A stretch of DNA of 59,226 nt from a virus. Taxonomy: Duplodnaviria > Caudoviricetes. Of this stretch, positions 8,299 to 26,704 are shown in pieces. Made by a program: the position numbers and the translations under genes. Under the pieces are notes generated by a model, which made no database searches, was not told the DNA's origin, and saw only the letters and a list, made by a program, of their open reading frames with translations. Within the stretch, counting starts at the first letter, position 1. Each line of letters opens with the position of its first letter. The stretch covers positions 1-59,226 of the IMG/VR virus record IMGVR_UViG_3300047457_001195; one strand, written 5' to 3'.

Positions 8299-11200
8299 TT
8301 AATAAGTTAGTTGTAATGTTCCATTCACTGACATAGCAATATTTGTCACCCTTGGATCATTAAAGAATGTAGTAAACGCACTACCATCTACAGTGCTATT
8401 TTCACTTCCTACATCTTTAACGTAAGTTAATAGTCCATCACTGTCAAGTGTTAATCCATGTAGTGTAGATCTGTTAACTTCATCTACATAGTTTTTATTT
8501 ACAAGATGATTACCAGTCAGTGCTGCCATTTGTGAGTATGTGGCAGTATAGTAGATATTAGTGCTTACATAGATCTTACCGGTTCCATCAGCAGATAAAA
8601 ATAAATCGCTGTTTGTGCCAGCTGTGGTTGTGAGTGTATCATTTTCAATATACAGTTTACCAGCTGTTAACACGTTAACAGTTAGACTATTAGATCCAGA
8701 ACCCAATTGACTATTAATATAAGTTCTAATAGCTCTTTGGGTAGGAACAATATTGTCACTATTTGCACTCATTGTTCCGTCAGCACTAAAGCTAAAGACT
8801 GTAGCACCTGTATTACCTAGTTGTAAGCTGTTCAAACCAGTTAGGTTAAATGAGCTAACATTCAATGTAGCTTGACCTGTAGCCTGATTAACTTGGAACA
8901 AGTCACCTACACTTAGGTTACCGTCTTGGTCAGTTGAAACATAAAACACACGACCATTATTCAAGCTCTTCTTTTCATTAGCTCTAACATAGTTTAATGT
9001 GCTCACACCTGGATAATTTGTAGAAGCAAAGTTTCCAGTTCCGATAGCTAGATAATCATGGCCAGTTAGTCGAACCTGACTAAACTTTTCATAAACTGCT
9101 GCTGTTGATCCCTGTAATAGTGGAGTAACTCTATCAATTGATGGACTGATAGAAACTGTTGCTGCACCAGTAATTGCATCATATGCAGTTGTTTCAATAA
9201 CTAAGAAGTTACCAGCTTGACCTGCAATAGTCATAATGCTACCAGGTCTTGGAGCCTTTGTAGTAAATCCTAGGAAATTAATTGAACTACCATACTGTGC
9301 AATTTCAGCGAATCCATTACCTGTCACACTGGTTACTGACGCAGTTAAGTATCCTGCACCTCTATTGCTAAAGGTTAATCTACTAATAGCACCATCTTTG
9401 ACTTCAGGTGTTAATGATGCTGCGCTGCTAGCTAAAGGATCAGTTATAGTAAATGTCGGCAGTGTTCCTGGTAGATAACCTTGACCACCATCAAATATAT
9501 AAACTGCACCAATAGTATCAGTTTCTGGATCAACTTGTGCAAATACTTTAGCAACTCTACTAGGACTATAACCAGTAGTGTTTACAACAACTTTAGCAAC
9601 GATTTCATACTTGGTGCTTTGGTCGAGCTCTGTTATGATAGCATCACCAGTTAATGTTTCCCATCCGTTGGTTCCGTCATCTTTCATGACATAAACGACA
9701 CGGGTAAATCCACTAGCACCATCTGTTACATAACTGTTCTTAACAGTTGCATATTGACCGCTACCTAAACCTTCTGTAATCAATATTCTCATTCCTAAAT
9801 ATTGATTATTTGTGTTCATTGAATCTGTAGCTGCCAATGCGAACCATACGCCGTTTCCGTTAGTTCCGCCTGTCCTACCAGTTCCTGTTACATATTGATA
9901 GTTTGCACCGCCGCTGTCGACAGTAATATGGCTTAGGGCGCCGTTGGTAAAGACTGGACTAGCTACCGCAGTTGTTCCACCTAATGGAGCACCTTCAAAT
10001 GTAACAGTTGCATTTGTGTAGTTTTGTCCTTGGTAATTCCATAAAACACCCAATACACGACCTTCGCCTGCTAGCACACGACCGACCTGTGCTTCTGTGC
10101 TTCTATTATTAACACTACCTGAATATCCTAGATCAGTTGGATCCAGGTCGCAAGCAACATCACCAAATGTTCCATAAGAGTTGTTACCATTTAATGCACG
10201 TAGAATACCACCTGTTTCAGTTAAGTATCCAATATAGGCATAATAGGTAAACACACTAACAAGTTCTGCTCTACCACCGTTTCTCGCCCAAATTGCAATA
10301 CCATCGTCGATGATCTGTGTGAAGTCATTTAGTGTCATTGACTTATAACCACTAGCATGTAGCGATCCGTCAATTAAAACACCAATAGCTCTAGTTCCAA
10401 ATACCGTACAGTTTTGAATGTATGGGCTTCGACTACTAATACTTCCTGTAGGATCTAAGCTAACATAACATCCAGATGCTGTAGTGCTTGGCCAAACTGA
10501 GGTTACTCGTTGAACACCGCTACCTGATGGAACCTGAACTCCTGTAAATTGTCCGGTCAATCCCATCATAGTCATGTTTCTAATAACGGTAGCATTATTA
10601 ACCAACCACATTCTACTTCTATTATTAGGTGTTATTCCATCGTCACTAATACCTTGACTTGCATATCTAAAGTTTAGGGCTGCTTGTCTTGAATAGCTGT
10701 TACCACCATAAATTAAATCGTTAACAACAGCTTCTACAAATTTTCCTGTATCTCTAGGACTTGTAGCATTTGTATAACCATAATTGGTTAGTAAGAAGGC
10801 TGCTGCCTCTTCTCTTAAGAATGTCTTATTAGCTAAAATTTGTGTTCTAGCATTAAGCTTGTACGGATCAGCAGTAGCAGGACCAGCAGCAACAATACCA
10901 GGTATTGCACCACCACTCATAACATTAGTGATAGTTCCAAATAAGTTTACTACAGTGCTCACAGCAGAAGCTGTGGACATTACACCCATTTGCAATTGTT
11001 GAACTGATGTCTGATAGGTAGTTGTCCATAGTGTATTCATCATTACATTAGAAACAACATCCTTAATGTAATTAATGGTAGCTACACAACTAGTGGTTAA
11101 AGCACTAAACTCAGTGCCTGGCATTACTGTAACTGAACGAAGTTCATCACCTACAATACTTACACCTGGCGGAACACGAATAGGTAGCTGCTCTCTATAT

Positions 11201-12471
11201 GTTCCTGTCTTAACAAAAATTGCTCCGCTTGTTACAACAGATGTTGCATATTTGATTGTTCTAAATGGACGATCAATTGTTCTACCATAATCTGATTCAT
11301 CTTCACCATTTGGAGCAACATACCAAACATTGTCAATTTGTCCAAATTCTTCATAGCGTGGTTCAAGGCTTGGCGTTGGAGAATTAACATATCTTGCCTT
11401 TAGAACCATGCCTTCTTGCACAGCGACTCCCTCAGGAGTTCCGTTGGCCATACTTAGACCAATAACTGCACCTGAATTTGATCTATAAGCAATATCACCT
11501 CTCTGAGTTAACACTGCTCCTACGCTGCCCTGAGCTAATAAAGTCCAATATGTGCTATTAGGAGGCATTTGGTTAGTGTTGACTGCGATAGCAATATAGC
11601 TATTACTATTTTTCTCAACAACATCACCAGGAGCGTATGAAGTGTTCGATGCCCATGTGCCTCTTGGATTTAGTCCTTTTAAGACTAAAGTCCAGTAGTT
11701 TGAGTTTACACCTGTAGTTCCAATATAGGGTTGAACATTTGTGCTATCAACTCTAGCAACATAGGCATATCCGCCATATTGAACAACATCACCTGTTTTA
11801 TAATTTGTGCTTGTTGTCCATGCATCTCTAACATTAAATCCAGTTGTTAATACATCCCAATAGGCTGTTTCTGTGCTAGGAGTTTTATTAACGTTTTCCT
11901 GAATAGAAACATAATTATAACCACCATAGGTTACAATATCCCCAACAGCGTATTGTCTAGAATTATCCCAACTATCCTCAAATTGTAAACCTTGAACAAA
12001 CTCATCAAAATAATTAGGATTAAATGTAGAAGTGCTAGTATGTTTTTGTGTTACGATAAAAACGTTAGCATTATACTTAACTAGATCATTTAAAGTATAT
12101 GTAGTAGCTGTGGTCCAAACACCCCTAAAGTTTACACTAGGAATATATAGATCCCAGTTACTGATGTTGTCCTCTAAGGATGCTCCACCTGTATAAGCTG
12201 TTTTACAGATATAAAGGTTTCCACCTGCTTGAGCAATGTCACCTACTTTGTAAAATGTCCCTGCAACGAAATCGTTTTTCCATTCGGTTCCACCTGTCAT
12301 TATCTGCCAATTTGCTTGGTTGGCAGGAAGTGTAGCACCACTGGTATGACTTACAATACATATATAGGAATAACCACCATAGCTTACGATATCATCTTTA
12401 TAATAAGCTTGATTGCTCTGCCATGGTCCTTTCCATACTAATTTAATTCTACCTAGTTTGAACTCAGCCAT
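8299..12471 (-). CDS. Large virion structural protein: ~7 N-terminal CBM5/12-like repeats plus parallel beta-helix region
   Basis: Repeats W....Y..GD.V.YGG..Y. WYVAPNG.D...GRT...PFRTI beta-helix entry motif. SPYIQNCT and C-terminal GRVFYVSTDQDGN...VNQATG resemble T4-like cyanophage structural proteins. Confidence 0.75.
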   Translation of the reverse strand: MAEFKLGRIKLVWKGPWQSNQAYYKDDIVSYGGYSYICIVSHTSGATLPANQANWQIMTGGTEWKNDFVAGTFYKVGDIAQAGGNLYICKTAYTGGASLEDNISNWDLYIPSVNFRGVWTTATTYTLNDLVKYNANVFIVTQKHTSTSTFNPNYFDEFVQGLQFEDSWDNSRQYAVGDIVTYGGYNYVSIQENVNKTPSTETAYWDVLTTGFNVRDAWTTSTNYKTGDVVQYGGYAYVARVDSTNVQPYIGTTGVNSNYWTLVLKGLNPRGTWASNTSYAPGDVVEKNSNSYIAIAVNTNQMPPNSTYWTLLAQGSVGAVLTQRGDIAYRSNSGAVIGLSMANGTPEGVAVQEGMVLKARYVNSPTPSLEPRYEEFGQIDNVWYVAPNGEDESDYGRTIDRPFRTIKYATSVVTSGAIFVKTGTYREQLPIRVPPGVSIVGDELRSVTVMPGTEFSALTTSCVATINYIKDVVSNVMMNTLWTTTYQTSVQQLQMGVMSTASAVSTVVNLFGTITNVMSGGAIPGIVAAGPATADPYKLNARTQILANKTFLREEAAAFLLTNYGYTNATSPRDTGKFVEAVVNDLIYGGNSYSRQAALNFRYASQGISDDGITPNNRSRMWLVNNATVIRNMTMMGLTGQFTGVQVPSGSGVQRVTSVWPSTTASGCYVSLDPTGSISSRSPYIQNCTVFGTRAIGVLIDGSLHASGYKSMTLNDFTQIIDDGIAIWARNGGRAELVSVFTYYAYIGYLTETGGILRALNGNNSYGTFGDVACDLDPTDLGYSGSVNNRSTEAQVGRVLAGEGRVLGVLWNYQGQNYTNATVTFEGAPLGGTTAVASPVFTNGALSHITVDSGGANYQYVTGTGRTGGTNGNGVWFALAATDSMNTNNQYLGMRILITEGLGSGQYATVKNSYVTDGASGFTRVVYVMKDDGTNGWETLTGDAIITELDQSTKYEIVAKVVVNTTGYSPSRVAKVFAQVDPETDTIGAVYIFDGGQGYLPGTLPTFTITDPLASSAASLTPEVKDGAISRLTFSNRGAGYLTASVTSVTGNGFAEIAQYGSSINFLGFTTKAPRPGSIMTIAGQAGNFLVIETTAYDAITGAATVSISPSIDRVTPLLQGSTAAVYEKFSQVRLTGHDYLAIGTGNFASTNYPGVSTLNYVRANEKKSLNNGRVFYVSTDQDGNLSVGDLFQVNQATGQATLNVSSFNLTGLNSLQLGNTGATVFSFSADGTMSANSDNIVPTQRAIRTYINSQLGSGSNSLTVNVLTAGKLYIENDTLTTTAGTNSDLFLSADGTGKIYVSTNIYYTATYSQMAALTGNHLVNKNYVDEVNRSTLHGLTLDSDGLLTYVKDVGSENSTVDGSAFTTFFNDPRVTNIAMSVNGTLQLTY

Positions 12472-12489
12472 TACTCATAATCCTTATTT

Positions 12490-13020
12490 TTATTCAGTTA
12501 TAGATCCGCAATCAATTATAGTATTAGGTATTTCAATGTCACCGACTGATCCTAAATCAGTTACTAATTTGTTTTCTAACGGACCAGTTTCTACAATTGT
12601 ACCTAAATCTTTGTCTCCTGTAAGCAGATTCTCAAGAGCTACTATATCAGAATATCCTTCACTATAGTTATAAACACTATTTATTCTGGCACTAAAATTT
12701 CCTTCTTCGTCAATATAGTAGAAAATATTACGACTATCCCACTTAAATTGCTCATAAAACAGGTTATCATAGACAAGATTATGCTCTAAATCACGACCTT
12801 CGAAAAAATCTACACCAGGCTCAAAAGTTTCAAATAATTTATTACCAGGCACATCTATACTAGGAGTTTGTATTGTGATAACATCAGATTGTCCATCTGT
12901 TTTAACCTTATATAAGGTTAAAAACCCGTCTTCATCATTTCTATTTAGACCATAGAAATACAAACTTCTATTAATCAGCTCGTTCTGATCTGGTTCGCCC
13001 TTTGGATAATACGTGCTCAT
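12490..13020 (-). CDS. Putative virion protein with C-terminal D-(L/C)-G-(S/T)-(I/V) repeats
   Basis: 176-aa ORF with upstream AGGATAG. Tail has DLGTI, DLGSV, DCGSI. Confidence 0.65.
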   Translation of the reverse strand: MSTYYPKGEPDQNELINRSLYFYGLNRNDEDGFLTLYKVKTDGQSDVITIQTPSIDVPGNKLFETFEPGVDFFEGRDLEHNLVYDNLFYEQFKWDSRNIFYYIDEEGNFSARINSVYNYSEGYSDIVALENLLTGDKDLGTIVETGPLENKLVTDLGSVGDIEIPNTIIDCGSITE

Positions 13021-13031
13021 TTTATTCTATC

Positions 13032-13361
13032 CTATGTTATTACCACATAACTTAATGAAACGTGTAAACTATTAGGCTGTGAACTTTTTACTGAAATCTT
13101 ACTGGTAGGTCCTAACACTAACCTCTCACCATTAGTTACAACCTTGAATGTAGCTTGGCTTGGCAACGAAATTGACATCAAATAATTTCCTACTGTAGGA
13201 GTAGCATCTGTCATAAAAACATCAAAATTACAGTCATTACCGCTGGCATTAGTTACATTAAATCCAACAATGGTTATTCTTTCAGCAGCACCGGCAGTAA
13301 GAACATCTGTAACCGTTAGTCCGATTCCTGTTACAACTTTATTATCAAATCTTGTTGGCAT
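13032..13361 (-). CDS. Small beta-rich virion protein
   Basis: 109-aa ORF in operon with beta-sandwich-like pattern ending V.LSY..IT. Confidence 0.65.
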   Translation of the reverse strand: MPTRFDNKVVTGIGLTVTDVLTAGAAERITIVGFNVTNASGNDCNFDVFMTDATPTVGNYLMSISLPSQATFKVVTNGERLVLGPTSKISVKSSQPNSLHVSLSYVVIT

Positions 13362-13363
13362 TT

Positions 13364-13729
13364 TTATCCTAGAATTAATGAATTTAATACTGAATCGTCT
13401 GTAAGTGCTGTGAAGCTAGCAGCATTAACAGTGACAAAAATCTGTTTGGCCTGTGATGCCCAATTAACGGCTTGATTGTTGTTTGAGCTAGAATAAATTT
13501 GAAGTCGCTGGACTGAATTAGAAGCAGTGCTATATCTCCCTACACCATTTTCCCATGATGGACCTAGAACTTCGGTAACACCATAATCAACAATACTATT
13601 ATCAGGTATAGCAGATAAAAATGTAATAAACCCCTGTGGGGCACCCCCTAAAACATATGTTCCAGTTCCTGTTGATGCAGTTGCTTCTTTAACACGATCT
13701 GCTCTAAATTTTTGAGGGTAATCTGCCAT
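13364..13729 (-). CDS. Phage structural protein (DRVKE...TGTG type)
   Basis: DRVKEATASTGTGT...WENGVG motif common in phage tail-associated proteins; ends in hydrophobic SLILG. Confidence 0.6.
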   Translation of the reverse strand: MADYPQKFRADRVKEATASTGTGTYVLGGAPQGFITFLSAIPDNSIVDYGVTEVLGPSWENGVGRYSTASNSVQRLQIYSSSNNNQAVNWASQAKQIFVTVNAASFTALTDDSVLNSLILG

Positions 13730-14133
13730 TATGGGTTATTCAGCGTAATAGATAATGTTATTCTAATTTCATCCCCAGCATTAGCGATTTGAATAGGTGC
13801 ATTGGTAAATCTGTTGGCAAAAAGCAATGATCCAGATGTAGATTGAATAACGTAGTATCCATAGATATATCCTGCTGCTCCGGTGAAAGTGAACGTGATT
13901 TGTGGATAGCTAGCCGAGCTAGGATCTCCAGCAGTAAATGTAAAATTAGCCGGGGTCAAAGTAACTGAAGCATAACCATATCCGCTGGCCTCTGTATAAT
14001 CTGCTGCTACGTCAGTTTTAGCAGGTGTTTTATTATTGGTATAAAGTTTAAGAACTAAACTTTGAGGCGCAGTGTTATTCACTATGTTTCTTAGTGCGAT
14101 TACTTCTCCGGCATTGGCGAAAACTATGGGCAT
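13729..14133 (-). CDS. Phage tail-associated structural protein
   Basis: LKLYTNN.TP...TEASGYGY...YGYYV pattern typical of small tail proteins; stop overlaps next start (TAATG). Confidence 0.6.
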   Translation of the reverse strand: MPIVFANAGEVIALRNIVNNTAPQSLVLKLYTNNKTPAKTDVAADYTEASGYGYASVTLTPANFTFTAGDPSSASYPQITFTFTGAAGYIYGYYVIQSTSGSLLFANRFTNAPIQIANAGDEIRITLSITLNNP

Positions 14134-14158
14134 AATGAACCTTTAATCTAATAAATTT

Positions 14159-14166
14159 TATTTATC
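14159..14166 (-). promoter_or_regulatory. Putative late promoter (GATAAATA)
   Basis: TAAATA core in the intergenic gap; same motif recurs upstream of many genes and resembles the T4 late consensus TATAAATA. Confidence 0.45.
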
Positions 14167-14167
14167 T

Positions 14168-15157
14168 TTACAAAAGTGTATATTTGAATTCTACACTCAA
14201 CCCAGACCCTGGTTGAACCTGGGTTCCGACTTGAACAACATCTACAGTGAGATAGTCATCAACTACCATATTTATGTTAACATTTACTTCAGTTTTAACT
14301 GTGCCAGTTGATATAGTAATTTGATTAACGGATGAACCATTTTGATTAGTCGATACCACAATGTCGCTATCAGCCGATGACGCTACTCTGCCTATAATTT
14401 TATAGATGTTTATAGGAGCAGGTGCGTGCCATCTAATCGTTCCGGTCTTTAAATTAAGAAATCCGTCTTGGTATAATATTACACTTTTGCTAACATCAGT
14501 GGTGCTAATCGTTCCGTCGCCGTTTATAACTAATCCATTACCAATCTTCACTGCACCAACTGTGGCTGTGGTGGCTGTATTGATGCTGAATGTTAGAGAT
14601 TTAGCAGTTCCAGATGTTAGAGCAACTATTCTAGTCCCTGTGCTGGCTACAAAATTTACAGTGTCTAGACCTTCAGCAACAAGTCCAGGACTTCCATCTA
14701 CATTCCAATTTTTAAAAGTAGAATTAATTGCTACTTTAGCAACACCATTGCCTAAATTTGTGACATCAAATCCACTATCAGCATCAAAGCTCAAGGTGGT
14801 TACATTGGTAACTGTGTTAGTTAGGGTATTATTAGTGGTGCTAAGAGCAACTTTTAAAGCTTCAACAGCTGGAACTGAAACCTTTACAGCCCCTCCACCT
14901 AAATTAGTAATACTAAAGTTACTATCAGTATCAAATCTAATAGCAGAAATTTGTCCAACTTCATTAAGTATGCTTCCGCCCTGTATGTTACTGACGCGAA
15001 GAGGTTGGACTGAGATTACCGATGTGTTAGTTCCTACGACCTGCTTAAGAAATATTTTACCGTCGTAGGTATTAATTGCCAGTTCGCCCAGATCTAAATC
15101 TGAGGGAACTGGAATCTTTGAAGGGACACTACTTCTTTTAAGTTTTATCTTATTCAC
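14168..15157 (-). CDS. Tail fibre segment protein
   Basis: GTG start. N-terminal IKLKRS...GELAINTYDGKIF. Two ~45-aa modules shared with the collagen N-terminus; ATTATVGAVKIG repeat. Confidence 0.7.
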   Translation of the reverse strand: MNKIKLKRSSVPSKIPVPSDLDLGELAINTYDGKIFLKQVVGTNTSVISVQPLRVSNIQGGSILNEVGQISAIRFDTDSNFSITNLGGGAVKVSVPAVEALKVALSTTNNTLTNTVTNVTTLSFDADSGFDVTNLGNGVAKVAINSTFKNWNVDGSPGLVAEGLDTVNFVASTGTRIVALTSGTAKSLTFSINTATTATVGAVKIGNGLVINGDGTISTTDVSKSVILYQDGFLNLKTGTIRWHAPAPINIYKIIGRVASSADSDIVVSTNQNGSSVNQITISTGTVKTEVNVNINMVVDDYLTVDVVQVGTQVQPGSGLSVEFKYTLL

Positions 15158-15162
15158 AAATT

Positions 15163-15188
15163 TTCACACCGAAGTGTGAATATTTATC
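15163..15188 (-). promoter_or_regulatory. GATAAATA motif followed immediately by a C(UUCG)G tetraloop hairpin
   Basis: Minus strand reads GATAAATA-TTCACAC-TTCG-GTGTGAA-AATTT-GTG(start). Confidence 0.65.
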
Positions 15189-17505
15189 AGTATGTTCCGC
15201 CGTCTAAATCTGCGTATTCTAAGGCAGTTCCATCTGCACTAACTTGTAGAACTGTTCCCGCAGCACCTTTGGTTAATTTAGATAGACTTCCACCGATATT
15301 ACCCACAAGTAAGTCATAGGCAGAGTAGCTGGTAAAACCTGTTCCACCATAACTTGCTCCTACTGTATTAGCTTGCCAGGTTCCTGAAGTAATAGTTCCT
15401 ACTGTGACAATACTGGTTTGGCCAGTATAGCTCGAAGCAATATCAATAGAGTCTGCGTTAACAGTGATTCTACCAGCAGTTCCACCTATATCCAAAACTC
15501 CTAGGCTATAAGTTAGACCAGCACCAGCAACACTGCTGGCTAATTGAACATTGTCATTAGAAACTTCGATACCATTTGTAGCATTGACAGAAAATACATT
15601 ACCTGTTAATGTAAGTCCATCACCGCCTATGTAGGTTCCAGCTCCACTAAACTGCGTAAACACAATCGGACTAGAACCAACTGTTGCAACTTCTTCAGTC
15701 TGTACCCAACCTGTATCACCGTTGACCTGACCATGAACAACAAATATAAAGTCGCCGCCTGCTAAATCTGCAGGTTGATTCATATCCTCTGCACGAGTGA
15801 ATGTTGTTGCGTTTGTTCTTATATAAACACCGTTATAGGCAGTTGTAGTTTCATTCTTAACTAGAACACGATCACCATTCACTAGTGAATATCCGTCCAA
15901 TGTGTTTAATGCAGAACTGAATGTTAAGTAGTCACCTACACCATTAGTTACTGTCGTATAAGTAACAGTTCCGCCAACTGATAAAGCCAATGTCTGCGTG
16001 GTCGCTGCATCAGCAGCAAAGTGAGTGTGCAGACCTTGTGCTACACTATCAACATAGTATTTGGTAGCAGCATCTTGATCATTTTGTGGTTCAGCAAGGT
16101 TTGTCAGTCTAGCATTGCTAAACTGGATTGTTGCTGAATTTTGTGTAACGATTGTAAATGTAGCTGTGTTTAGTGCTTCAATTGTATAATCATAGATTTT
16201 AACATTATCAACGGTAACTTCTGTTAGTCCTGATAAAACAGTGCTTGATGCCCCAAGGCTTATTGAAGTTGAGCCAATAGTAACTGCGCTGTTGGCTAAT
16301 TGTGTATTGCTTATTCCACCTGTCTTTACGCTAACATTACCGTCAGTTACACTAAAGGTAGAGCTAGTGAATCTAGCAACGCCCAGTGTCGACCAAGTTG
16401 CTGTGCTAACAAATAAATCAATTTTACCCGAACTGTCGTCATAGGTGCTGGTAATATTTTGGGTTACATTTCCTGTAAACAATCCACCAGCAATGTCTTC
16501 AATTCTTTCAACTTGGAGATTAACTGCACCGCTACTTACACTGAAATCAGTAGCATCAAAGCTAGCAATACCTTTAGTGCTTGTTGAAGCATTGTTAATT
16601 GCTACATCACCATTAGTTACTGTAAAATAACTTGCAGCGAAGCTGGCAATACCTTTATTAGCTGAGCTTGCGTCCTCACCACTAATAGTGATTGTGTTAT
16701 TAGTTACAGCAACATCAATGCCTTCTCCACCGTTAACAGCTAGTGTATCATTTAGTAGAGATACCGTATCACTTCCTGTATCACCGGAAATTGCGAGCTG
16801 TGAACTACTTTGCTGCCAAGTGGTTCCTCCTACTCCGTCACTGGTAAGAACATACCCGCTAGTGCCAGTGCTATTTGGTAAGGTAAACCAGTTATTGATA
16901 CTGATTTTACCGGTTCCATTTGTGGCCAAAACTAAATTGGCATTACTTGCGGTATTACTTATAGTGCTGCCATCTATCTGAATATTATCAGTGGCAAACA
17001 TTCCTGTAATAACTAGTTTATTATTAGCGGCATCCCATAATAGATTTGACGTATCAGCTAGTTTTCCACCAGTTGAAGCAAAGACCAAGCGACCATTGGT
17101 TAAATTTTCAACAGTTAAATCGTGCCCGGTGCTGACAACTACGCCACCAGTTCCGTTTGGTGTTAATGTTAAATTACCATTAGTATCTGTTGTGCTAATA
17201 TCATTACCGTTAATGGTAATATTATCAACATTAAGAACATCAATCTTACTGTTTGAATCAACAATTAGAGCGCTGCCTGCTGTCACTGTTCCAGCAACAT
17301 GATCCAGCAAGTCAGTGAAATATTTTCCACCTATGACAAAATGGTTAGCAGCATTTCCGCCGGTTTCAGACCCCATACCTATGTATAATCGATCTCCCCC
17401 GTTAGCCTGTGTTCCTGACAACGATGAATATGCTAATTCACCTGCGGCCAGTGTAGCTGGATTTCCTGCTACTGATGAACGTTTAATTCTAATAACTGAT
17501 GCCAT
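15187..17505 (-). CDS. Long tail fibre protein
   Basis: N-terminal IRIKRS...AGELAYS; KGIASF repeats; DAATKYYVD; GDRVLVKNE...NGVY; F.QFSGAG; C-terminal DLDGGTY. Confidence 0.8.
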   Translation of the reverse strand: MASVIRIKRSSVAGNPATLAAGELAYSSLSGTQANGGDRLYIGMGSETGGNAANHFVIGGKYFTDLLDHVAGTVTAGSALIVDSNSKIDVLNVDNITINGNDISTTDTNGNLTLTPNGTGGVVVSTGHDLTVENLTNGRLVFASTGGKLADTSNLLWDAANNKLVITGMFATDNIQIDGSTISNTASNANLVLATNGTGKISINNWFTLPNSTGTSGYVLTSDGVGGTTWQQSSSQLAISGDTGSDTVSLLNDTLAVNGGEGIDVAVTNNTITISGEDASSANKGIASFAASYFTVTNGDVAINNASTSTKGIASFDATDFSVSSGAVNLQVERIEDIAGGLFTGNVTQNITSTYDDSSGKIDLFVSTATWSTLGVARFTSSTFSVTDGNVSVKTGGISNTQLANSAVTIGSTSISLGASSTVLSGLTEVTVDNVKIYDYTIEALNTATFTIVTQNSATIQFSNARLTNLAEPQNDQDAATKYYVDSVAQGLHTHFAADAATTQTLALSVGGTVTYTTVTNGVGDYLTFSSALNTLDGYSLVNGDRVLVKNETTTAYNGVYIRTNATTFTRAEDMNQPADLAGGDFIFVVHGQVNGDTGWVQTEEVATVGSSPIVFTQFSGAGTYIGGDGLTLTGNVFSVNATNGIEVSNDNVQLASSVAGAGLTYSLGVLDIGGTAGRITVNADSIDIASSYTGQTSIVTVGTITSGTWQANTVGASYGGTGFTSYSAYDLLVGNIGGSLSKLTKGAAGTVLQVSADGTALEYADLDGGTY

Positions 17506-17516
17506 TTATCGCTCCA

Positions 17517-17819
17517 TTAATATTCGCCCGCATCGACGTTTTGTTGATCCAAGGTTGTGCTTGCTTTCCACTTATTTATATCGGTTTTATAAACTAGAAC
17601 CGACCCATTTGTGAGTTCTGTAATGTCTACATCAGTGGCCATATTGGCCAAAGTGTTATGATTTTCAGTGTAGGGAATGTCATTCCAATGGTTTACACCG
17701 TCCCCAACTTTGAACTTTTTAGTGTCAAGCTCAATACAAAGCTCGCCTTCTGCTATTACAGGATTGGCAGAAGACCATTGAGAAGCTGTCCCTCGACGAA
17801 GTTGTATTTGTACAGGCAT
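17517..17819 (-). CDS. Small Mtd-N/hyaluronidase-N-like fibre connector
   Basis: IQLRRGTASQWSSANPVIAEGELCIELDTKKFKVGDG; ends NVDAGEY. Confidence 0.75.
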   Translation of the reverse strand: MPVQIQLRRGTASQWSSANPVIAEGELCIELDTKKFKVGDGVNHWNDIPYTENHNTLANMATDVDITELTNGSVLVYKTDINKWKASTTLDQQNVDAGEY

Positions 17820-17827
17820 AATTATGT

Positions 17828-17835
17828 TATTTATA
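17828..17835 (-). promoter_or_regulatory. Putative late promoter TATAAATA
   Basis: Exact T4 late consensus, 8 nt upstream of the ATG at 17819, overlapping the upstream stop codon. Confidence 0.55.
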
Positions 17836-18376
17836 CGTATCCAGCATCAAAATTAGTGATGCCACCGTAGATGCTATCAGCATATCCGCCATCTAAATTA
17901 TATAAAACTGTGTTTGCGGGGCTAAATTCTAGTCCCGAACTGCTGGAATTTACTGTAACAACATAACCAGCAGCTCCTACATAACTATTCGGAGTATCGG
18001 TAAGGGCTAGAAAACTTGTAACACCAGATCCTGTTCCACCGCCTCCACTGGCAAAAGAAATTTCAGACCAATTAGCCTCAGCATTTGGCATAGCACCGGT
18101 AATTTGACTGCGGATTTCTCCGGGTAATAGAGCATAGGTATAATATGTTGAGCTAGTTCTAGTATAGCCACTGGCAACATATCCATTTTTTAAGAATACA
18201 ATCATACCTTCAGATATGCGCTGACCATATATGTCTGTTAGCTTATCTCCTGCGCCACCGGAAATGCTTTGTAGACCACCCCTTAACTCAGTATCAAGTG
18301 CGATTGGCGCTGCACCAGTAGGACTCCAAGTTCCCGGCCACGTGTTTCTCGTTAAACCACTGTAATCAACTGGCAT
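17831..18376 (-). CDS. Fibre-associated protein
   Basis: F.ALTDTPNSY.G..G..V.VN...GLEF motif; ends LDGGYA...FDAGYV. Confidence 0.7.
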   Translation of the reverse strand: MPVDYSGLTRNTWPGTWSPTGAAPIALDTELRGGLQSISGGAGDKLTDIYGQRISEGMIVFLKNGYVASGYTRTSSTYYTYALLPGEIRSQITGAMPNAEANWSEISFASGGGGTGSGVTSFLALTDTPNSYVGAAGYVVTVNSSSSGLEFSPANTVLYNLDGGYADSIYGGITNFDAGYV

Positions 18377-18380
18377 TTTA

Positions 18381-21300
18381 TTATCCTATATCAACATAAG
18401 TTTGACCTGGTTGCAGAGTTATTCCATATAAAGAATAGTTTTCTGCAACATAACCTGCGCCCGGGCTGTCTGGTTGAAGGGCAACTGTTCCTGTGGTTAT
18501 TGCAACATCGCTTAACAAAGAAGCAGAAGCGCCTGTTCTAAAACTAGTAGGTTGCGAAGCACTTGTTCTTATTCCAAACCAGAATCCTCTTGGCACAGCC
18601 TGTGTATTATTTACAAAACTAGAAAATACTTTAACCTGATTAGCTAATTGAGTAACTGTGCTTTTAAATCCGAACCCATTAACAATATCTGCTCGTTGAG
18701 GAACAAAGCTAGTGGCTGTGCTCCATGTCCAGAAGCTTGGATATGTAAAAGTTGTAGAAGGGTTAGAAGTTGTATTGGTTACAGTGGCAGCATAACTCGC
18801 ACCGGTTACAGCTACAGGTCTTGTAAATGTTGTGCTATTTGTCACTGTTCTGGTATCACTGGTATTATTTTTATGCACAGGGGTTGTAAACACAAATGTT
18901 CCTGATCCTATAGGATTTGAAACTGAACCACCGCTAGCTGTTACTGCATTTAAGTAGTTAGCAGAATTAGTTATTCCAGTAATAGATACAGTATAAGCTA
19001 CGTCAGTATAGCGTCCTAAGAATGTCTGACCTGTTAAGCTACCTAACGAAACCCCCATAGTAGGTGTAGCCCAATTTATATTGAATGTAGCACTAGATGT
19101 ATTATATGGTTGTTCGATGCTATTATTTGTATAGTTAAATGCAACTCGACTACTAGCCGAACCTCCTGAAATTGTAGTTGAATAAGGACGAATCCATCCA
19201 TTAGTAAATGATCTAGTCCAATCTACACCACCGGCTGGTGTGGCACTGTAACTTCCAGCTGTAAATGTTCCTAATGCTGCTACAAATCCTGTTATACTGC
19301 TTATAGATAGAACACTACTAATATAAGATTCTGTAAAGTCTGTAGGATTATCAACACTTACACTAAATCCAGTTGCAGCAACATCCCAGTTTAAAGAACT
19401 GCTCGGTAATGGCGAAGCAGTAAATGCTGGAGTAAATGTAGCGATAGTTAACCTTAACAAATTATTCGAAAACTCAGCAGTTCTTACAGGTTGAACACCG
19501 ACACCATCATTATATCCTGTTAAAATTCTATAATTACCCGAAGTTGTCCAAACTAAAGAACTATCACCTTGCGGTCCAGTTACCCCTTGCGGTCCTTGTG
19601 GTCCTTCTGGTCCAGTTGGCCCAGTTACGCCTTGTGGCCCTTGCGGACCAGTTACTCCTTGTGGCCCTTGCGGACCAGTTACGCCTTGAGGGCCTTCTGG
19701 TCCAGTTACTCCTTGTGGCCCTTGTGCTCCTTGCGGTCCTACAGGACCGACAATAGTTCCTACATCAGTCCATGTTCCTGATCCATAAACCCAAAGATGT
19801 CCATCATTTGATGTAATATAACCGTCACCGTTATTACCTATATAAGGATAAGGCAACCCTGCTTGTGTAGATGTTGATCCAATAATAGTAACACTGGTTC
19901 CATCATCACCTTTAGGTCCGCTAGGTCCAGTTGGTCCTGTTACACCTTGTGGGCCTTGTGGACCAGTTACACCTTGTGGTCCTTGTGGTCCTGTTACGCC
20001 TTGTGGTCCTTGTGGTCCAGTTACACCCTGTGGTCCTTCTGGTCCAGTTACACCCTGTGGTCCTTGTGGACCAGTTACGCCCTGTGGTCCTTGTGGTCCG
20101 GTAACTCCTTGTGGTCCTTCTGGTCCAGTAACTCCTTGTGGTCCTTCTGGTCCAGTTGGTCCAGTTACACCCTGCGGTCCTTGTGGTCCAGTTACACCTT
20201 GTGGTCCCTGCGGTCCAGTTACACCTTGTGGTCCTTCTGGTCCAGTTGGTCCAGTTACACCCTGCGGTCCCTGTGGTCCGGTAACACCTTGTGGCCCCTG
20301 CGGTCCGGTTACACCTTGTGGTCCTTCTGGTCCGGTTGGTCCAGTTACGCCCTGCGGTCCTTGTGGACCAGTTACACCTTGTGGTCCTTGTGGTCCTGTT
20401 ACGCCCTGCGGTCCTTGTGGTCCGGTTACACCTTGTGGTCCTTCTGGTCCGGTTACACCTTGTGGTCCTTGTGGTCCGGTAACTCCTTGTGGTCCTTGTG
20501 GACCAGTTACGCCCTGCGGTCCTTCTGGCCCAGTTACACCTTGCGGTCCCTGTGGTCCGGTAACACCTTGTGGCCCTTGCGGACCGGTTACTCCTTGTGG
20601 ACCTTCTGGTCCTGTAACTCCTTGCGGTCCTTGCGGTCCTGTAACTCCTTGCGGTCCTTGCGGTCCTGTAACTCCTTGTGGTCCTTGTGGACCTTCTGGT
20701 CCAGTTACACCCTGAGGTCCTTGCGGTCCAGTTACACCCTGAGGTCCTTGTGCTCCTTGAGGTCCTTGAGCACCAGCAGGACCGACAATCTGTCCTACAC
20801 TTGTCCATGTATTGCTGGCATAAACCCAAAGATCGCCATCGGATTCTACTATATAACCGTCACCGGGTTGACCTAAGTAAGGAAAAGGAAGTAACGAGTC
20901 TGTGCTTGTAGATCCTACAATTTTTACACTAGTTCCATCATCTCCTTTAGGTCCACTAGGGCCTGTTGGTCCTGTAACGCCCTGCGGTCCAGTTACGCCC
21001 TGCGGTCCTTCTGGTCCAGTTGGTCCAGTTACACCTTGAGGTCCTTGTGGTCCGGTTACACCTTGCGGACCTTCTGGTCCTGTTGGTCCCGTGACACCTT
21101 GTGGACCTTGTGGACCAGTTACACCTTGTGGACCTTGTGGACCAGTTACACCTTGTGGACCTTCCGGTCCAGTGACGCCTTGCGGTCCTTGTGGACCAGT
21201 TACTCCTTGTGGACCTTGTGGACCAGTTACTCCTTGTGGACCTTCCGGTCCAGTGACGCCCTGCGGTCCTTGTGGTCCAGTTACGCCTTGAGGTCCCTGT

Positions 21301-24300
21301 GGGCCAGTTACACCTTGTGGTCCTTCTGGTCCGGTTGGTCCAGTTACACCTTGTGGACCTTGCGGTCCTGTAACTCCTTGTGGGCCTTGAGGACCGGTAA
21401 CGCCTTGTGGGCCTTGAATTCCTTCTGGTCCAGTAACTCCTTGTGGTCCTTCTGGTCCAGTTGGTCCAGTTACGCCCTGTGGTCCTTGTGGACCAGTTAC
21501 TCCTTGTGGTCCTTCTGGTCCAGTTGGACCGGTAACGCCTTGTGGACCCTGTGGTCCTGTTACGCCTTGTGGTCCTGTTACGCCTTGTGGTCCTTCTGGT
21601 CCAGTTACACCTTGTGGGCCTTGCGGGCCGGTTACACCTTGTGGTCCTTCTGGTCCGGTTACACCTTGTGGTCCTTCTGGTCCGGTTACACCTTGCGGTC
21701 CTTGTGGTCCGGTTACACCTTGTGGACCTTCTGGTCCAGTTGGTCCTGTTACGCCTTGTGGGCCTTGTGGACCAGTTACGCCTTGAGGACCTTCTGGTCC
21801 AGTTGGTCCAGTTACGCCCTGTGGTCCTTGTGGACCAGTTACTCCTTGTGGACCTTCTGGTCCAGTTGGTCCAGTTACGCCCTGTGGTCCTTGTGGACCA
21901 GTTACTCCTTGTGGACCTTCTGGACCGGTTACACCTTGAGGTCCTTGCGGTCCAGTTACTCCTTGTGGTCCTTGCGGTCCTGTAACTCCTTGTGGACCTT
22001 CTGGACCAGTAACTCCTTGCGGTCCTTGTGGACCAGTAACTCCTTGTGGTCCTTGCGGTCCAGTTACACCTTGTGGTCCTTCTGGCCCTGTTACACCTTG
22101 TGGTCCTTGTGGCCCAGTTACACCTTGTGGTCCTTGCGGTCCTGTTACTCCTTGTGGACCTTCTGGTCCGGTAACTCCTTGAGGTCCTTGTGGTCCGGTA
22201 ACTCCTTGAGGTCCTTGTGGTCCAGTTACACCTTGTGGTCCTTCTGGTCCAGTTACACCTTGTGGTCCTTGTGGTCCTTGTGGACCAGTTACACCTTGTG
22301 GTCCTTGTGGCCCTGTTACGCCTTGAGGGCCTTCTGGTCCTGTTGGTCCTGTTACACCTTGTGGTCCGGTAACTCCTTGTGGTCCTTGAGCTCCTTGTGG
22401 TCCTTGAGCTCCTTCTGGTCCGACAATAGTTCCTACATCCGTCCATGTTCCTGATCCATAGACCCAAAGATGTCCATTATCAGAGGTAATATACCCGTCC
22501 CCGTTATTACCTACATAAGGATAGGGTATTCCTGCCTGGGTAGAGGTAGTTCCAATAATAGTAACACTGGTTCCGTCATCACCTTTAGGTCCGCTAGGTC
22601 CAGTCGGACCTGTAACACCTTGTGGTCCTTCTGGTCCAGTTACACCTTGTGGTCCTTGTGGCCCAGTTACGCCCTGCGGGCCTTGTGGTCCTGTTACACC
22701 TTGCGGTCCTTCTGGTCCCGTCGGACCTGTAACACCTTGAGGTCCTTGTGGCCCAGTTACACCTTGTGGTCCTTGTGGTCCGGTTACACCTTGTGGTCCT
22801 TCAGGCCCAGTTACACCTTGTGGTCCCTGCGGTCCTGTAACTCCTTGTGGTCCTTGTGGTCCGGTTACACCTTGTGGTCCTTCAGGCCCAGTTACACCTT
22901 GTGGTCCCTGCGGTCCTGTAACTCCTTGTGGTCCTTGTGGCCCTGTTACACCCTGCGGTCCTTCTGGTCCAGTTACACCTTGCGGTCCTTGTGGCCCAGT
23001 AACTCCTTGTGGTCCTTGTGGCCCTGTTACACCTTGTGGTCCTTCTGGTCCTGTTACACCTTGGGGTCCTTGTGGACCAGTAACTCCTTGTGGTCCCTGT
23101 GGACCTGTAACACCTTGTGGTCCTTCTGGTCCAGTTACGCCTTGTGGCCCTTGTGGTCCAGTTACGCCTTGCGGTCCCTGTGGTCCTGTTACACCTTGCG
23201 GTCCTTCTGGTCCAGTTACGCCTTGTGGCCCTTGTGGTCCAGTTACACCTTGCGGTCCCTGTGGACCCGTTACGCCTTGTGGTCCTTCTGGTCCTGTTGG
23301 TCCAGTGACACCTTGTGGTCCCTGTGGTCCGGTTACACCTTGTGGTCCTTGTGGCCCTGTTACGCCTTGAGGGCCTTCTGGTCCAGTTGGTCCAGTGACG
23401 CCTTGTGGTCCAGTTACACCTTGCGGTCCTTGTGGTCCGGTTACACCTTGTGGTCCTTGTGGTCCAGTTACACCTTGAGGTCCTTGCGGACCGGTTACGC
23501 CCTGCGGACCTTCTGGTCCTGTTGGTCCAGTAACACCTTGTGGTCCTTGTGGTCCAGTTACACCCTGCGGTCCTTCTGGTCCTGTCGGACCTGTTACGCC
23601 TTGGGGTCCTGTTACACCTTGGGGTCCTATAGGACCGACAATTGTTCCTACATCAGTCCATGTCCCTGATCCGTAAACCCAAAGATGTCCATCGTTGGAT
23701 GTAATATAACCGTCTCCGGCAATTCCTCCGTAGGGATAAGGTAATCCTGCCTGTGTAGACGTAGATCCAATAATAGTAACACTGGTTCCGTCATCCCCTT
23801 TAGGTCCGCTAGGTCCAGTCGGGCCAGTTACACCTTGTGGGCCTTGTGGACCAGTTACACCTTGTGGGCCTTCTGGTCCTGTTACGCCCTGTGGTCCTTG
23901 TGGTCCAGTTACGCCCTGCGGTCCTTGGGGCCCAGTAACTCCTTGTGGTCCAGTTACGCCCTGTGGACCTTCTGGTCCGGTTACACCTTGTGGGCCTTCT
24001 GGTCCGGTTACACCTTGAGGTCCTTGCGGTCCAGTTACTCCTTGTGGTCCGGTAACACCTTGTGGTCCTATTACATTTCCAGCATTAAAACTTCCACCGT
24101 CGTCGGTATAAACAATTAAATCACCATTAAGATCTACATCAACATTTGTTATGCTTACGCCGGATGGACCTGTAGGTCCAGTAACACCTTGCGGTCCTTG
24201 TGGTCCAGTTACACCTTGCGGTCCTTCTGGTCCTGTTGGTCCAGTTACACCCTGCGGTCCTTGTGGTCCAGTTACACCTTGCGGTCCCTGTGGTCCAGTT

Positions 24301-25835
24301 ACACCTTGCGGTCCTTCTGGTCCTGTTGGTCCAGTGACGCCTTCTGGTCCAGTTACACCTTGTGGTCCTTGTGGTCCGGTTACACCTTGCGGTCCTTCTG
24401 GTCCTGTTGGTCCAGTTACACCTTGTGGTCCTTGTGGTCCGGTTACACCTTGTGGTCCAGTAACACCTTGCGGTCCTTCTGGTCCTGTTGGTCCAGTGAC
24501 GCCTTGTGGTCCTTGTGGTCCAGTAACACCTTGTGGTCCTTCTGGTCCTGTTGGTCCGGTTACACCTTGCGGACCTTGTGGACCAGTTACGCCCTGCGGG
24601 CCTTGTGGTCCTGTTACACCTTGTGGTCCTGTTACACCTTGTGGTCCTTGAGCTCCTTCTGGGCCTACTACTGTTCCTACATCAGTCCAAGTTCCCGATC
24701 CATATATCCATAAATGACCGTCATTTGATGTAATATAACCGTCACCGTCTATTCCCCCGTAAGGAAATGGTAATCCAGCTTGAGTTGATGTAGTGCCTTT
24801 TAAGGTTATACTAGTCCCGTCTTCTCCTTTAGGTCCGCTAGGACCGGTAGGTCCAGTTACACCTTGTGGTCCCTGCGGTCCTGTAACTCCTTGTGGCCCT
24901 TGTGGACCAGTTACACCTTGTGGTCCTTCTGGTCCAGTTACACCTTGTGGTCCCTGCGGTCCTGTAACTCCTTGTGGACCTTCTGGTCCGGTTACACCTT
25001 GCGGTCCTTGTGGTCCAGTTACACCTTGTGGTCCCTGCGGTCCTGTAACTCCTTGTGGACCTTCTGGTCCGGTTACACCTTGTGGTCCTTCTGGTCCGGT
25101 TGGGCCGGTTACACCTTGCGGACCTTGTGGACCGGTAACTCCTTGCGGACCTTGTGGACCGGTAACTCCTTGCGGACCTTGTGGTCCGGTTGGGCCGGTT
25201 ACACCTTGTGGTCCTTGTGGACCAGTGACTCCTTGTGGTCCCTGTGGACCAGTAACTCCTTGTGGTCCCTGTGGACCAGTGACTCCTTGTGGTCCGGTTG
25301 GTCCACCGCTAGGACCAGTTGGCCCAGCAGGACCTGTAGGACCGACACTGCCTGTTACAAGGCTACCATTTACATATATTCCTCCGCCAATAACACTTAC
25401 TGTATTTCCGCCTAGAACAAAGGTGCTAGAGCTCAAATATAGACTATAGAAAGGACTTGTAGGACTACCTATATTAAAAGTTCCCGGAATGCCAGGAACA
25501 ATATTTGTTAAAACATTAGTTAGGTCAGTAGCCGACGAGCCCCCGCTGCCGCCTTTTAAAACAACTTTAGCTTGCCCGTTCCCAACATCGACAACATCAA
25601 AACTAGCTTCATCAAATGTAAGAGAAGTAACATTTGTTACTGTGCTTGTAACAGTATTGCTTGAAGAAATTAGAGCTATTTTTAGGCTGCTAATTAGCTT
25701 ACCACCAGGAGTTACATCGTCTCCCAGTCTTAGCTCACCTAATACCTCGTCATACCATATGGTTCCCTTAGGACCTACCCAAGATGAGGCCTCTACGGTT
25801 ATAACTCTGCCTGCTTCTATCTTACGTATAGGCAT
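18381..25835 (-). CDS. Giant collagen-like fibre protein (2484 aa) with periodic globular interruptions and Ser/Thr-rich C-terminal domain
   Basis: About 1,600 residues of Gly-X-Y ([12 protein letters not shown]) interrupted by six short non-collagen inserts. Confidence 0.92.
19570..25350 (-). repeat. Collagen-coding degenerate tandem repeat (9/27/81-nt periodicity)
   Basis: Plus strand repeats such as ggtccagttacaccttgtggtccttgt with synonymous variation. Confidence 0.95.
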
Positions 25836-26129: not shown

Positions 26130-26312
26130 TTAGTGAATCATTCCGAACCATACTATCGCTGCGACAATTAATAAGGGAATCCACCAGGATATAAAGTATC
26201 CAGTTAATAGGCAAATATTCAGCCATGCTAGATGATAAAGGTGGTAAAACCAAGGTATATTAATTACACCAAGAAGTTTTTGCTTCACCGAAATATTCTC
26301 TTGCGTAACCAT
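26130..26312 (-). CDS. Possible small membrane protein
   Basis: Hydrophobic 60-aa ORF filling an otherwise empty gap; overlaps the nuclease 3' end; start uncertain. Confidence 0.35.
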   Translation of the reverse strand: MVTQENISVKQKLLGVINIPWFYHLYHLAWLNICLLTGYFISWWIPLLIVAAIVWFGMIH

Positions 26313-26694: not shown

Positions 26695-26704
26695 TATCAA
26701 TCCT

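Follow-up and report, generated by a model that had tools for sequence, protein, structure and literature searches.

The Mtd_N domain is a trimeric beta-prism that attaches Mtd to the fibre of phage BPP-1, and LtfC is the anchor of the lateral fibres of T5-like phages. The closest described system to the one considered here is the long tail fibre of T4, in which gene order is also fibre order. According to PMC3004832, gp36 and gp37 are separate proteins, the fibre segments are separate trimers, and binding between gp36 and gp37 is established. The principle of coupling fibre segments is already known, with T4 gp34–37 as the precedent. Literature searches found no printed rule for recognising such a "plug" and "cap" in sequence; supplements lay outside that search and could hold one. 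PDB sequence searches returned no solved gp36 or gp37 N-terminal entry, and hence no atomic model of the T4 joint: CC31 gp36 had 0 matches, the CC31 gp37 N-terminus matched the gp34 repeat alone, and p4, described below, gave nothing relevant. The Pakpunavirus P7-1 atlas (PMC13338283) proved uninformative, its fibres being single proteins on a triplex loop.

The window, meaning the whole 59,226-nt stretch analysed, has four consecutive minus-strand genes, here called p1 to p4 in order of transcription, with exactly the coordinates and termini that a sequence-only reading had given them. At each of their three junctions, a C-terminal hydrophobic-D-[GA]-G-x-[Y/V] end (the plug) meets a basic N-terminal domain of ~45 residues with the pattern I-x-L-K/R-R-S/G ... 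GEL (the cap). The window contains 215 ORFs of 40 aa or more, counting both strands. Among them the C-terminal motif is confined to p1, p2, and p3 and the N-terminal one to p2, p3, and p4, with GEL in all three of the latter, and the motif-bearing ORFs form one unbroken row. The three successive pairings of acidic end and basic start with a GE(L) motif, as first read from the letters, are thus borne out by the ORF list and the motif count. A megablast of positions 12000-19000 against phage records gave no match.

The first protein of the row, p1 (181 aa, 17831-18376), has weak PHROG matches to tail and virion proteins, an N-terminus of the DYSGLTRNTWPGTWS type, and a C-terminal region with two plug-like peptides (..LDGGYA..FDAGYV). 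In p2 (100 aa, 17517-17819), which starts ..IQLRRGT, an Mtd_N domain at residues 5-42 is followed by a C-terminal hairpin domain ending ..VDAGEY; p2 would be a double-ended adaptor. The long fibre segment p3 (772 aa, 15187-17505) starts ..IRIKRSS, with a type A N-terminal domain (IRIKRSS..GELAYS, residues 1-45, nt 17371-17505; alignments A1 and A3), and ends in the plug LDGGTY (nt 15190-15207). Its middle part matches PDB 9efk orf22 (E 4.4e-13). Finally, p4 (329 aa, 14168-15157, GTG start) begins ..IKLKRSS with a gp37-type domain (IKLKRSS..GELAINTYDGK, residues 1-45, nt 15023-15157), recognised by tblastn, BLASTP, and alignment A2. The p4 C-terminus is an unrelated sequence, and because this terminal domain differs, p4 is probably the distal segment of the fibre. 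All of these features are on the minus strand.

At the level of sequence, the p3–p4 junction is the counterpart of the T4 gp36–gp37 joint. The p4 N-terminus is 45% identical to that of T4 gp37 over 38 residues (BLASTP, E 9e-07), and by tblastn it matches the gp37 N-termini of CC31, EcS1, PG7, and other T4-type phages, gp37 starting I-x-F-K-R-S..GELAIN. On the upstream side, the D-x-G-x-Y terminus of p3 (..LDGGTY) corresponds to the gp36 ends ..DFGYY in T4 and ..DFGTY in CC31 and EcS1. As a whole protein p3 is not a gp36 homologue (best E 1.0 against T4 gp36); the tail peptide alone is common to both. There are other contrasts with the T4 fibre: the tail-and-cap joint would be used three times in succession, the bodies bear no relation to gp36 or gp37, counterparts of gp34 and gp35 are absent, and the chain would hang on a collagen-like giant protein via another end pair.

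The caps differ in how closely they resemble described domains. The p2 N-terminus matches Pfam Mtd_N (PF18454) with E 5.7e-14 and 52.2 bits, above the curated cut-off of 26.3 (53.1 bits in a search of its own record), while those of p3 and p4 have no Pfam match at E up to 1 and so fall below that cut-off. In profile–profile comparisons, the type A cap profile matches the Mtd_N type with 92.2% probability (E 5.7e-07) and the type B profile matches type A with 97.0% probability (E 1e-10); the direct link between type B and the Mtd_N type (A2 to A4) is weak, at 19.5%. The p3 and p4 caps read as related caps, linked to Mtd_N by profile comparison only, and not as called members of that family. Conservation in alignment A2 ends after about 45 residues, and when p4 residues 1-90 are modelled by AF2 as a monomer, pLDDT exceeds 90 over residues 1-50. 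Foldseek with this N-domain model found 0 PDB matches with E of 0.001 or less; HylP entries ranked 14th and 22nd, both with E above 2.

For the Mtd_N cap itself, the nearest arrangement is in BPP-1, where Bbp9 ends ..ADLGGIA directly before the ..VQFRGGT start of Mtd. These ends are homologous to those of p1 (..FDAGYV) and p2 (..IQLRRGT), p2 carrying Mtd_N, but Mtd is a receptor binder in terminal position whose diversity comes from a retroelement, whereas p2 is a 100-aa adaptor with a plug of its own. The N-termini of HylP1-3 (streptococcal prophage hyaluronidases) match p2 residues 1-61 in PDB searches (E 2.6e-06 to 3.6e-05), although these are single-protein tail fibres with enzymatic bodies. 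A looser resemblance is to the T5-like DT57C fibre: the first gene of the chain's relatives, of ~112 aa, weakly matches the LtfC-like beta-sandwich (PF23926, E 1.7e-4, below cut-off). The window is without such a gene, and neither the LtfC-like anchor nor the small adaptor of the relatives has a tblastn match below E 0.25 in it.

The reading we favour, with a probability of roughly three in four, is that p1–p4 and the giant make up one multi-segment fibre of an uncultured T4-like aquatic phage, built with reusable joints. Each of the five proteins would be a separate homotrimeric segment of one long virion fibre, encoded in proximal-to-distal order, and a single reusable joint would hold the p1–p4 segments together. 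The plug would be the extreme C-terminus of a trimer, made of a hydrophobic residue, then D-[GA]-G-x-aromatic/aliphatic, with a free carboxyl end, and it would add as a parallel beta-strand to the first strand (I-x-L-K/R-R-S/G) of the next trimer's cap. This cap would be a small basic N-terminal domain, of the Mtd_N kind in p2 and resembling the gp37 N-terminus in p3 and p4. Since conservation is limited to the cap and the tail peptide, bodies could be exchanged or inserted without altering the joint. Physical binding in this phage, the trimeric state, the order on the virion, and the site at which the chain is anchored are what we infer.

One pair, the p3 C-terminus with the p4 N-terminus, was modelled as a 3:3 complex, the kind of prediction that the sequence-only reading had proposed as a check. 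The model sets the two motifs against each other, the last seven residues of p3 pairing with p4 residues 1-10. The interface comprises p3 residues 750-752, 754, 757, and 766-772 and p4 residues 1-10, 14, 16, 20, 22, and 27. All three runs scored 0.85. Of 80 solved complexes 58 attain this mark, as do 2 of 110 mismatched pairs; the best control scored 0.01. The controls were unrelated proteins, so the score may reflect a generic fit of any fibre end with any fibre start. The runs share at least 97% of their contacts, and partner pLDDT is at least 77. PDB profile searches with A1 or A2 gave nothing or noise, with no relative of either side, which makes it unlikely that the model simply recalls a solved complex.

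This bears on a quite different account, in which the terminal motifs are fold-capping or trimerisation elements inherited by tandem duplication, their adjacency is synteny, and the ends do not bind each other. The mutual relatedness of the p2, p3, and p4 N-domains would fit such an origin, as would the kinship of many of the loci counted below and the 48 junctions at which a plug adjoins no cap gene in loci selected for the plug. The modelled interface, however, is made up of precisely these motifs; binding is established for the T4 pair, whose ends are the same (PMC3004832); the plug is carried by unrelated bodies, with at least four preceding sequence types and no p3–gp36 similarity; and the pair is also found in the distant BPP-1, S-CBS2, and Motura. 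On balance we regard descent by duplication without binding as unlikely.

The end pairs recur in relatives of the locus. Across the 20 IMG/VR loci in which the p3-like gene is complete, the small protein encoded before it always ends [DNE]-[GA]-G-x-[FY] and the p3-like protein always ends [DE]-G-G-x-[YF]; the next gene starts I-x-L-K-[KR]-S..GE in all 17 loci read downstream (13 + 4, with L008, L013, and L024 left out). The same chain is present in the cultured Limnohabitans phage DC31, Methylophilales phage Melnitz-3, and Pelagibacter phage Mosig, and the plug–cap pair also in myoviruses, BPP-1, Motura, and Synechococcus phage S-CBS2, which we take to be a siphovirus (its record gives no morphotype). 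An unbiased scan of IMG/VR for the ..DGGTY-TAA codon pattern was read in 80 of the 120 stretches returned. All 81 matches in these close an open frame no shorter than 60 codons, and the following gene has the basic N-terminus in 29 of 74 cases by a strict regex, or about 37 of 74 by eye.

Counting junctions, loci selected by p3 gave 26 with both motifs, three with the C-terminal one only, one with the N-terminal one only, and 169 with neither; for loci selected by the plug, the corresponding numbers were 36, 48, 20, and 460. Across the junctions, 62 different N-domains occur, which fall into 22 clusters below 60% identity, but many of the loci are mutually related and Fisher values overstate their independence. 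The sequence-only reading had expected the adjacency to be enriched over shuffled gene order, and in IMG/VR it is: 36 plug–cap pairs were observed, against 11.3 on average and 21 at most after shuffling. A plug stands before each of the 34 type A caps, and a D-x-G-x-aliphatic end precedes true Mtd_N. The idea that segments can be swapped also gains from these comparisons, the conserved parts being the first ~45 residues and the last few, on otherwise unrelated bodies.

The general coupling that had been proposed is supported, with limits: it recurs in the 20 related loci, in myoviruses, S-CBS2, and BPP-1, but it is not universal, and exceptions are many. Several cap proteins have no adjoining plug (P-SSM2, S-CAM7, DSL-LC02, and S-RIM2), and a stricter rule, that a plug always precedes Mtd_N, was rejected on these four and on the protein at 3-1259 of the window. 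What comes after a plug-ended gene is a gp13-like neck gene in L053, L074, L088, and L100, a small coiled-coil protein in L043, L047, L056, L090, and L097, and a Gly-rich protein in about 20 loci, and the plugs without a cap include a podovirus-like class of ~80-aa plug proteins after which Gly-rich proteins are encoded. In Mosig-like loci, a small Lys-rich gene separates the plug gene from the cap gene. These neighbours would suit a C-terminal peptide that serves as a docking or recognition tag for a partner not encoded by the next gene, for instance an assembly chaperone, a site on the baseplate or neck, or a small protein lying in between, with the caps binding elsewhere. We consider this somewhat less probable again than tandem duplication, given the enrichment over shuffled order, the plug before every type A cap, and the complex model together with the T4 precedent.

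The spacing of the genes raises one more alternative, that they are pieces of one gene fused by read-through or frameshifting, so that the joint is an internal domain boundary. The gaps between the chain genes are short (4, 11, 11, and 29 nt), and stop and start overlap in many relatives. Against this, the stop and a separate start are kept in every relative, a regex search of 107 IMG/VR loci (L005-L031, L037-L116) and seven window genes found 0 plug–cap forms fused in one ORF, and T4 gp36 and gp37 are described as separate proteins in PMC3004832. Fusion is very improbable.

Upstream of p1 lies the collagen-like giant (2484 aa, 18381..25835, minus strand), in which G-x-y repeats match Pfam Collagen (131.4 bits, with five stretches among the final 700 aa) and whose N-terminus is a variant basic/GEL domain. 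Its type of C-terminus precedes a p1-like N-terminus in 21 of 21 loci (14 distinct pairs, four of the 21 matched by eye after the regex missed them). The giant would thus join p1 through a second conserved end pair, the p1 N-terminus being the partner of the giant's C-terminus. That the chain extends the collagen fibre, as first suggested, is consistent with this co-occurrence, although the ends involved are different from those of the p1–p4 joints.

It is possible, though at present rather doubtful, that plug and cap are a universal portable strand-addition connector, shared by T4 gp36/gp37, BPP-1 Bbp9/Mtd, and environmental fibres by the thousand, from myo-, sipho-, and podoviruses, with small variations encoding the order of segments. 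Genomes would then reveal how a fibre is laid out and in which order it assembles, and its segments could be recombined at will. Position -2 of the plug is T before 31 of 35 gp37-type caps, as against nine of 34 type A caps. The plug peptides look alike at all three window junctions, and segment order is therefore not accounted for by the plug peptide. Of the "coupling code" originally put forward, the coupling is supported by the match of the p3 and p4 ends to T4 gp36/gp37 and by the modelled pairing of the motifs, but no pair-specific code has emerged. Gene sequence may reveal the order in which such fibres are built. In uncultured phages, most fibre genes are annotated singly as "tail fibre" or "hypothetical"; a sequence rule for joining order would turn gene lists into fibre architectures, unite the T4 gp37 N-terminus, Mtd_N, and the HylP N-terminus, which are now annotated separately, and account for the exchange of fibre bodies between distant phages (mosaicism). 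It would also supply a natural connector for host-range studies in laboratory phage–host pairs. The modelled strand pairing is a concrete structural target, since PDB sequence searches found no solved gp36–gp37 joint.

Two smaller features of the window were also recorded. A fifth Mtd_N-type protein, overlooked at first, is encoded at 3-1259 (..LQLRRGT), and the gene upstream of it (1271-3430) ends ..HGIISD, without a plug. Between the p3 stop and the p4 GTG start, a putative RNA hairpin with a UUCG loop (15156..15187, minus strand; core stem-loop 15163-15180) has a predicted energy of -12.8 kcal/mol (z -3.72), with two of 200 shuffled sequences folding equally well.

Four minus-strand ORFs follow the gene for a 2484-aa collagen-like fibre protein (18381–25835, here "the giant"): p1 (17831–18376, 181 aa), p2 (17517–17819, 100 aa), p3 (15187–17505, 772 aa), and p4 (14168–15157, 329 aa, GTG start). 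The sequence-only reading had described them as a chain in which a C-terminal peptide on one product (the "plug," hydrophobic-D-[GA]-G-x-[Y/V]) precedes a basic N-terminal domain on the next (the "cap," beginning I-x-L-[K/R]-R-[S/G]), and the ORF listing agrees with it in both coordinates and end peptides. Among the 215 window ORFs of at least 40 aa, the C-terminal motif occurs only in p1, p2, and p3 and the N-terminal motif only in p2, p3, and p4, so that the motif-bearing genes form one uninterrupted row. The plugs at these joints are near-identical, and the intergenic gaps along giant-p1-p2-p3-p4 are 4, 11, 11, and 29 nt. There is one exception within the window: a fifth Mtd_N protein (3–1259, 55.5 bits) runs off its end, and the gene upstream of it, 1271–3430, has no plug.

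The caps are of three kinds. That of p2 is a Pfam Mtd_N domain (E 5.7e-14, 52.2 bits against a cut-off of 26.3), and p2 also has matches at the N-termini of streptococcal phage hyaluronidases whose structures are solved; a Pfam search gave no call for p3 or p4, whose caps are referred to as types A and B. When alignments of relatives were compared as profiles, type B matched type A with 97.0% probability and type A matched the Mtd_N type with 92.2%, while types B and Mtd_N compared directly gave just 19.5%. Conservation among 22 p4-like proteins ends after ~45 residues, and an AF2 monomer model of p4 residues 1–90 has pLDDT above 90 for residues 1–50 only. A Foldseek search with the small p4 N-domain model found no significant match.

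An IMG/VR scan with p3 gave 27 loci, 20 of them with a complete p3-like gene. In all 20, a small upstream protein (68–125 aa) ends in [DNE]-[GA]-G-x-[FY] and the p3-like protein itself in [DE]-G-G-x-[YF]. In all 17 of these loci that were read further downstream, the gene after it begins with a type B cap, including four in which that gene runs off the locus. The first protein of the chain in these relatives is ~112 aa long with a weak LtfC-like match; no such gene was found in the window. A second IMG/VR scan, unbiased by homology, used a codon pattern for hydrophobic-D-G-G-T-Y-TAA and returned at least 120 stretches, of which 80, with 81 matches, were analyzed. Every one of the 81 closes an open frame 60 or more codons long, and the downstream ORF has a cap in 29 of 74 cases by strict pattern and in ~37 of 74 by eye. 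The capless remainder includes ~20 podovirus-like proteins of ~80 aa with a Gly-rich protein encoded next, four cases before gp13-like neck genes, and five before small coiled-coil proteins.

Junctions in the p3-selected loci comprise 26 with both motifs, three with the plug only, one with the cap only, and 169 with neither; the corresponding numbers for the plug-selected loci are 36, 48, 20, and 460. When gene order was shuffled within loci 2000 times, the number with both motifs averaged 11.3 and never exceeded 21, against the observed 36, an excess in keeping with the general adjacency that had been proposed. The 62 distinct caps in these junctions group into 22 clusters at under 60% identity, and the tallies therefore do not represent independent events. 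Two local arrangements were seen repeatedly. Members of the podovirus-like class (L038, L058, L062, L070, L079, L083, L116, and others) contain SPTFTGT and end in IDGGTY, with a stop overlapping the start of a 300–600-aa protein whose N-end is Gly-rich; these proteins have the plug, which may have a different partner. In pelagiphage-like loci (L003, 9710–9919; L045, L056, L072, L092), a small Lys-rich or coiled-coil gene of 46–97 aa separates the plug-ended fibre gene from the cap gene (..VIKPKRSE..).

The plug also varies with the cap that follows. Type A caps have a plug upstream in 34 of 34 cases, with T at position -2 in nine of these, and type B caps in 35 of 50, with T in 31 of the 35. 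For Mtd_N-type caps the figure is nine of 12 (two DGGTY, seven D-x-G-x-x variants). The difference at position -2 between cap types could reflect a code, or else shared ancestry. In a tblastn search the first 60 residues of p4 matched 137 phage records with a p4-like cap, and nine of these, from cultured phages, were examined. A plug-ended gene lies directly upstream of the cap in six (DC31, CC31, EcS1, S-CBS2, Motura, and S-CRES3), with two consecutive joints in S-CBS2. No plug was found there in P-SSM2 or S-CAM7, which have an endonuclease gene in this position, or in DSL-LC02, where the neighbor is divergent, nor upstream of the Mtd_N protein of S-RIM2.

The p4-cap matches include the N-end of gp37, the distal subunit of the long tail fibre, in CC31, EcS1, PG7, phiR1-RT, and others. 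In the CC31 and EcS1 records gp36 ends in DFGTY and gp37 begins with an I-x-F-K-R-S..GELAIN domain; in T4 itself gp36 ends in DFGYY, and over 38 residues the N-ends of gp37 and p4 share 45% identity (E 9e-07). Binding and polarity at the T4 gp36-gp37 joint are established (PMC3004832). Given these shared ends and the established T4 joint, p3-p4 is, at the level of sequence, the counterpart of gp36-gp37. A whole-length relationship between p3 and gp36 was considered and rejected (best E 1.0), the tail peptide alone being common to them. In sequence and profile searches of the PDB, neither gp36, nor the gp37 N-end, nor either partner in the p3/p4 joint had a relative, and in a 2026 T4 preprint the distal rod is modelled from predictions at low resolution. 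A similar pair occurs in BPP-1, where Bbp9 ends in ADLGGIA and the next gene, mtd, begins VQFRGGT, resembling p1 (..FDAGYV) before p2 (..IQLRRGT).

A predicted complex of three copies of p3 residues 683–772 and three of p4 residues 1–70, with a separate alignment for each, also supports p3/p4 binding, with controls that were unrelated proteins rather than other fibre ends. It scored 0.85 in three of three runs, a mark attained by 58 of 80 solved complexes and two of 110 mismatched pairs; the best of the three controls scored 0.01. Contact agreement between runs was at least 97% and partner pLDDT at least 77. The modelled interface involves p3 G750–V752, Q754, A757, and D766–Y772 and p4 residues 1–10, K14, P16, D20, D22, and A27. 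Because the lowest-error pairs (p3/p4 767-5, 769-7, 771-9) run in register, our reading of the model is that the plug would add as a parallel strand to the cap's first strand.

The giant itself appears to be joined to p1 by a second end pair, unlike plug and cap. The 34 loci with p1 relatives share the p1 N-end DY(S/N)GLTRNxWPGTWS (18330–18376 in the window), and the upstream gene has a giant-like C-end, YxLYGIxLQxGxTYVxI(S/G) (18381–18400; loci L158–L184), in 21 of 21 loci where it is visible, representing 14 distinct pairs; four of the 21 were matched by eye, the pattern having missed one residue. The two genes overlap or are separated by 4 nt, and several of the p1-upstream proteins begin with a type B cap or the giant's variant cap. 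The conserved pair makes it most likely that the chain extends the collagen fibre, as had been suggested. The best reading overall is a predicted five-segment fibre with reusable joints. The principle of joining segments in this way is already known from T4; what is added is the serial use of the joint, the linking of gp37-N, Mtd_N, and HylP-N caps, and a portable plug peptide. A literature search, supplements excluded, found no plug/cap sequence rule in print.

The window spans an entire IMG/VR virus record (59,226 bases) whose estimated completeness is 27%, with nearly all genes on the minus strand. Around the plug/cap row are genes for a baseplate-wedge-connector-like protein and several virion structural proteins, and near it a 1390-aa CBM5/12 tail fibre and three further paralogues. 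The nearest named relatives of p3 are from Limnohabitans phage DC31, the Methylophilales Melnitz phages, and Pelagibacter phage Mosig, the last two filed under Kyanoviridae. Together, the surrounding virion genes and these relatives indicate that the row belongs to the block of fibre genes in an aquatic, T4-like myovirus. The four paralogues (8299–12471, 6169–8286, 3826–6156, and 1271–3430) share a CBM5/12-like N-end, LG[K/R]-[I/L]-K-F-x-W-[K/R]-G-x-W, also found in a 1245-aa Mosig fibre, and three of them have RCC1-like repeats (PHROG "regulator of chromosome condensation").

The protein with the baseplate-wedge tail-fibre-connector match (phrog_677; 33337–35256, 639 aa) might anchor a cap-bearing fibre, for instance the giant, to the baseplate. 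Its C-end, VNGTGLI, is like the plug variants before Mtd_N-type caps (..DGGGVI, ..ADLGGIA). Between the virion structural genes and the giant is a nuclease-like gene (phrog_452; 26260–26748) with a signal-peptide-like N-end; the endonuclease genes of P-SSM2 and S-CAM7 are at the matching place, ahead of cap-bearing fibres. Downstream of p4, a 134-aa protein (13729–14133; M-x-I-V-F-x-N-x-G-E.., LVLKLY..) and the 121-aa protein after it may be tip or assembly proteins. Both recur 3' of p4-like proteins (L184, L180), and the p4-like C-end (..GLSVEFFYTFD) is likewise conserved in L184. A UUCG-loop hairpin (15156–15187, z -3.72) lies between the p3 stop and the GTG that starts p4, and the initial G and the T of that codon are part of its outer stem. 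The heptamer ATAAATA is found 13 times on the coding (minus) strand versus twice on the other and presumably resembles the core of T4-type late promoters. Copies of it precede p2, p4, the 134-aa gene, and a 789-aa gene by 15–32 nt (e.g., before 17819, 15157, 14133, and 31855).
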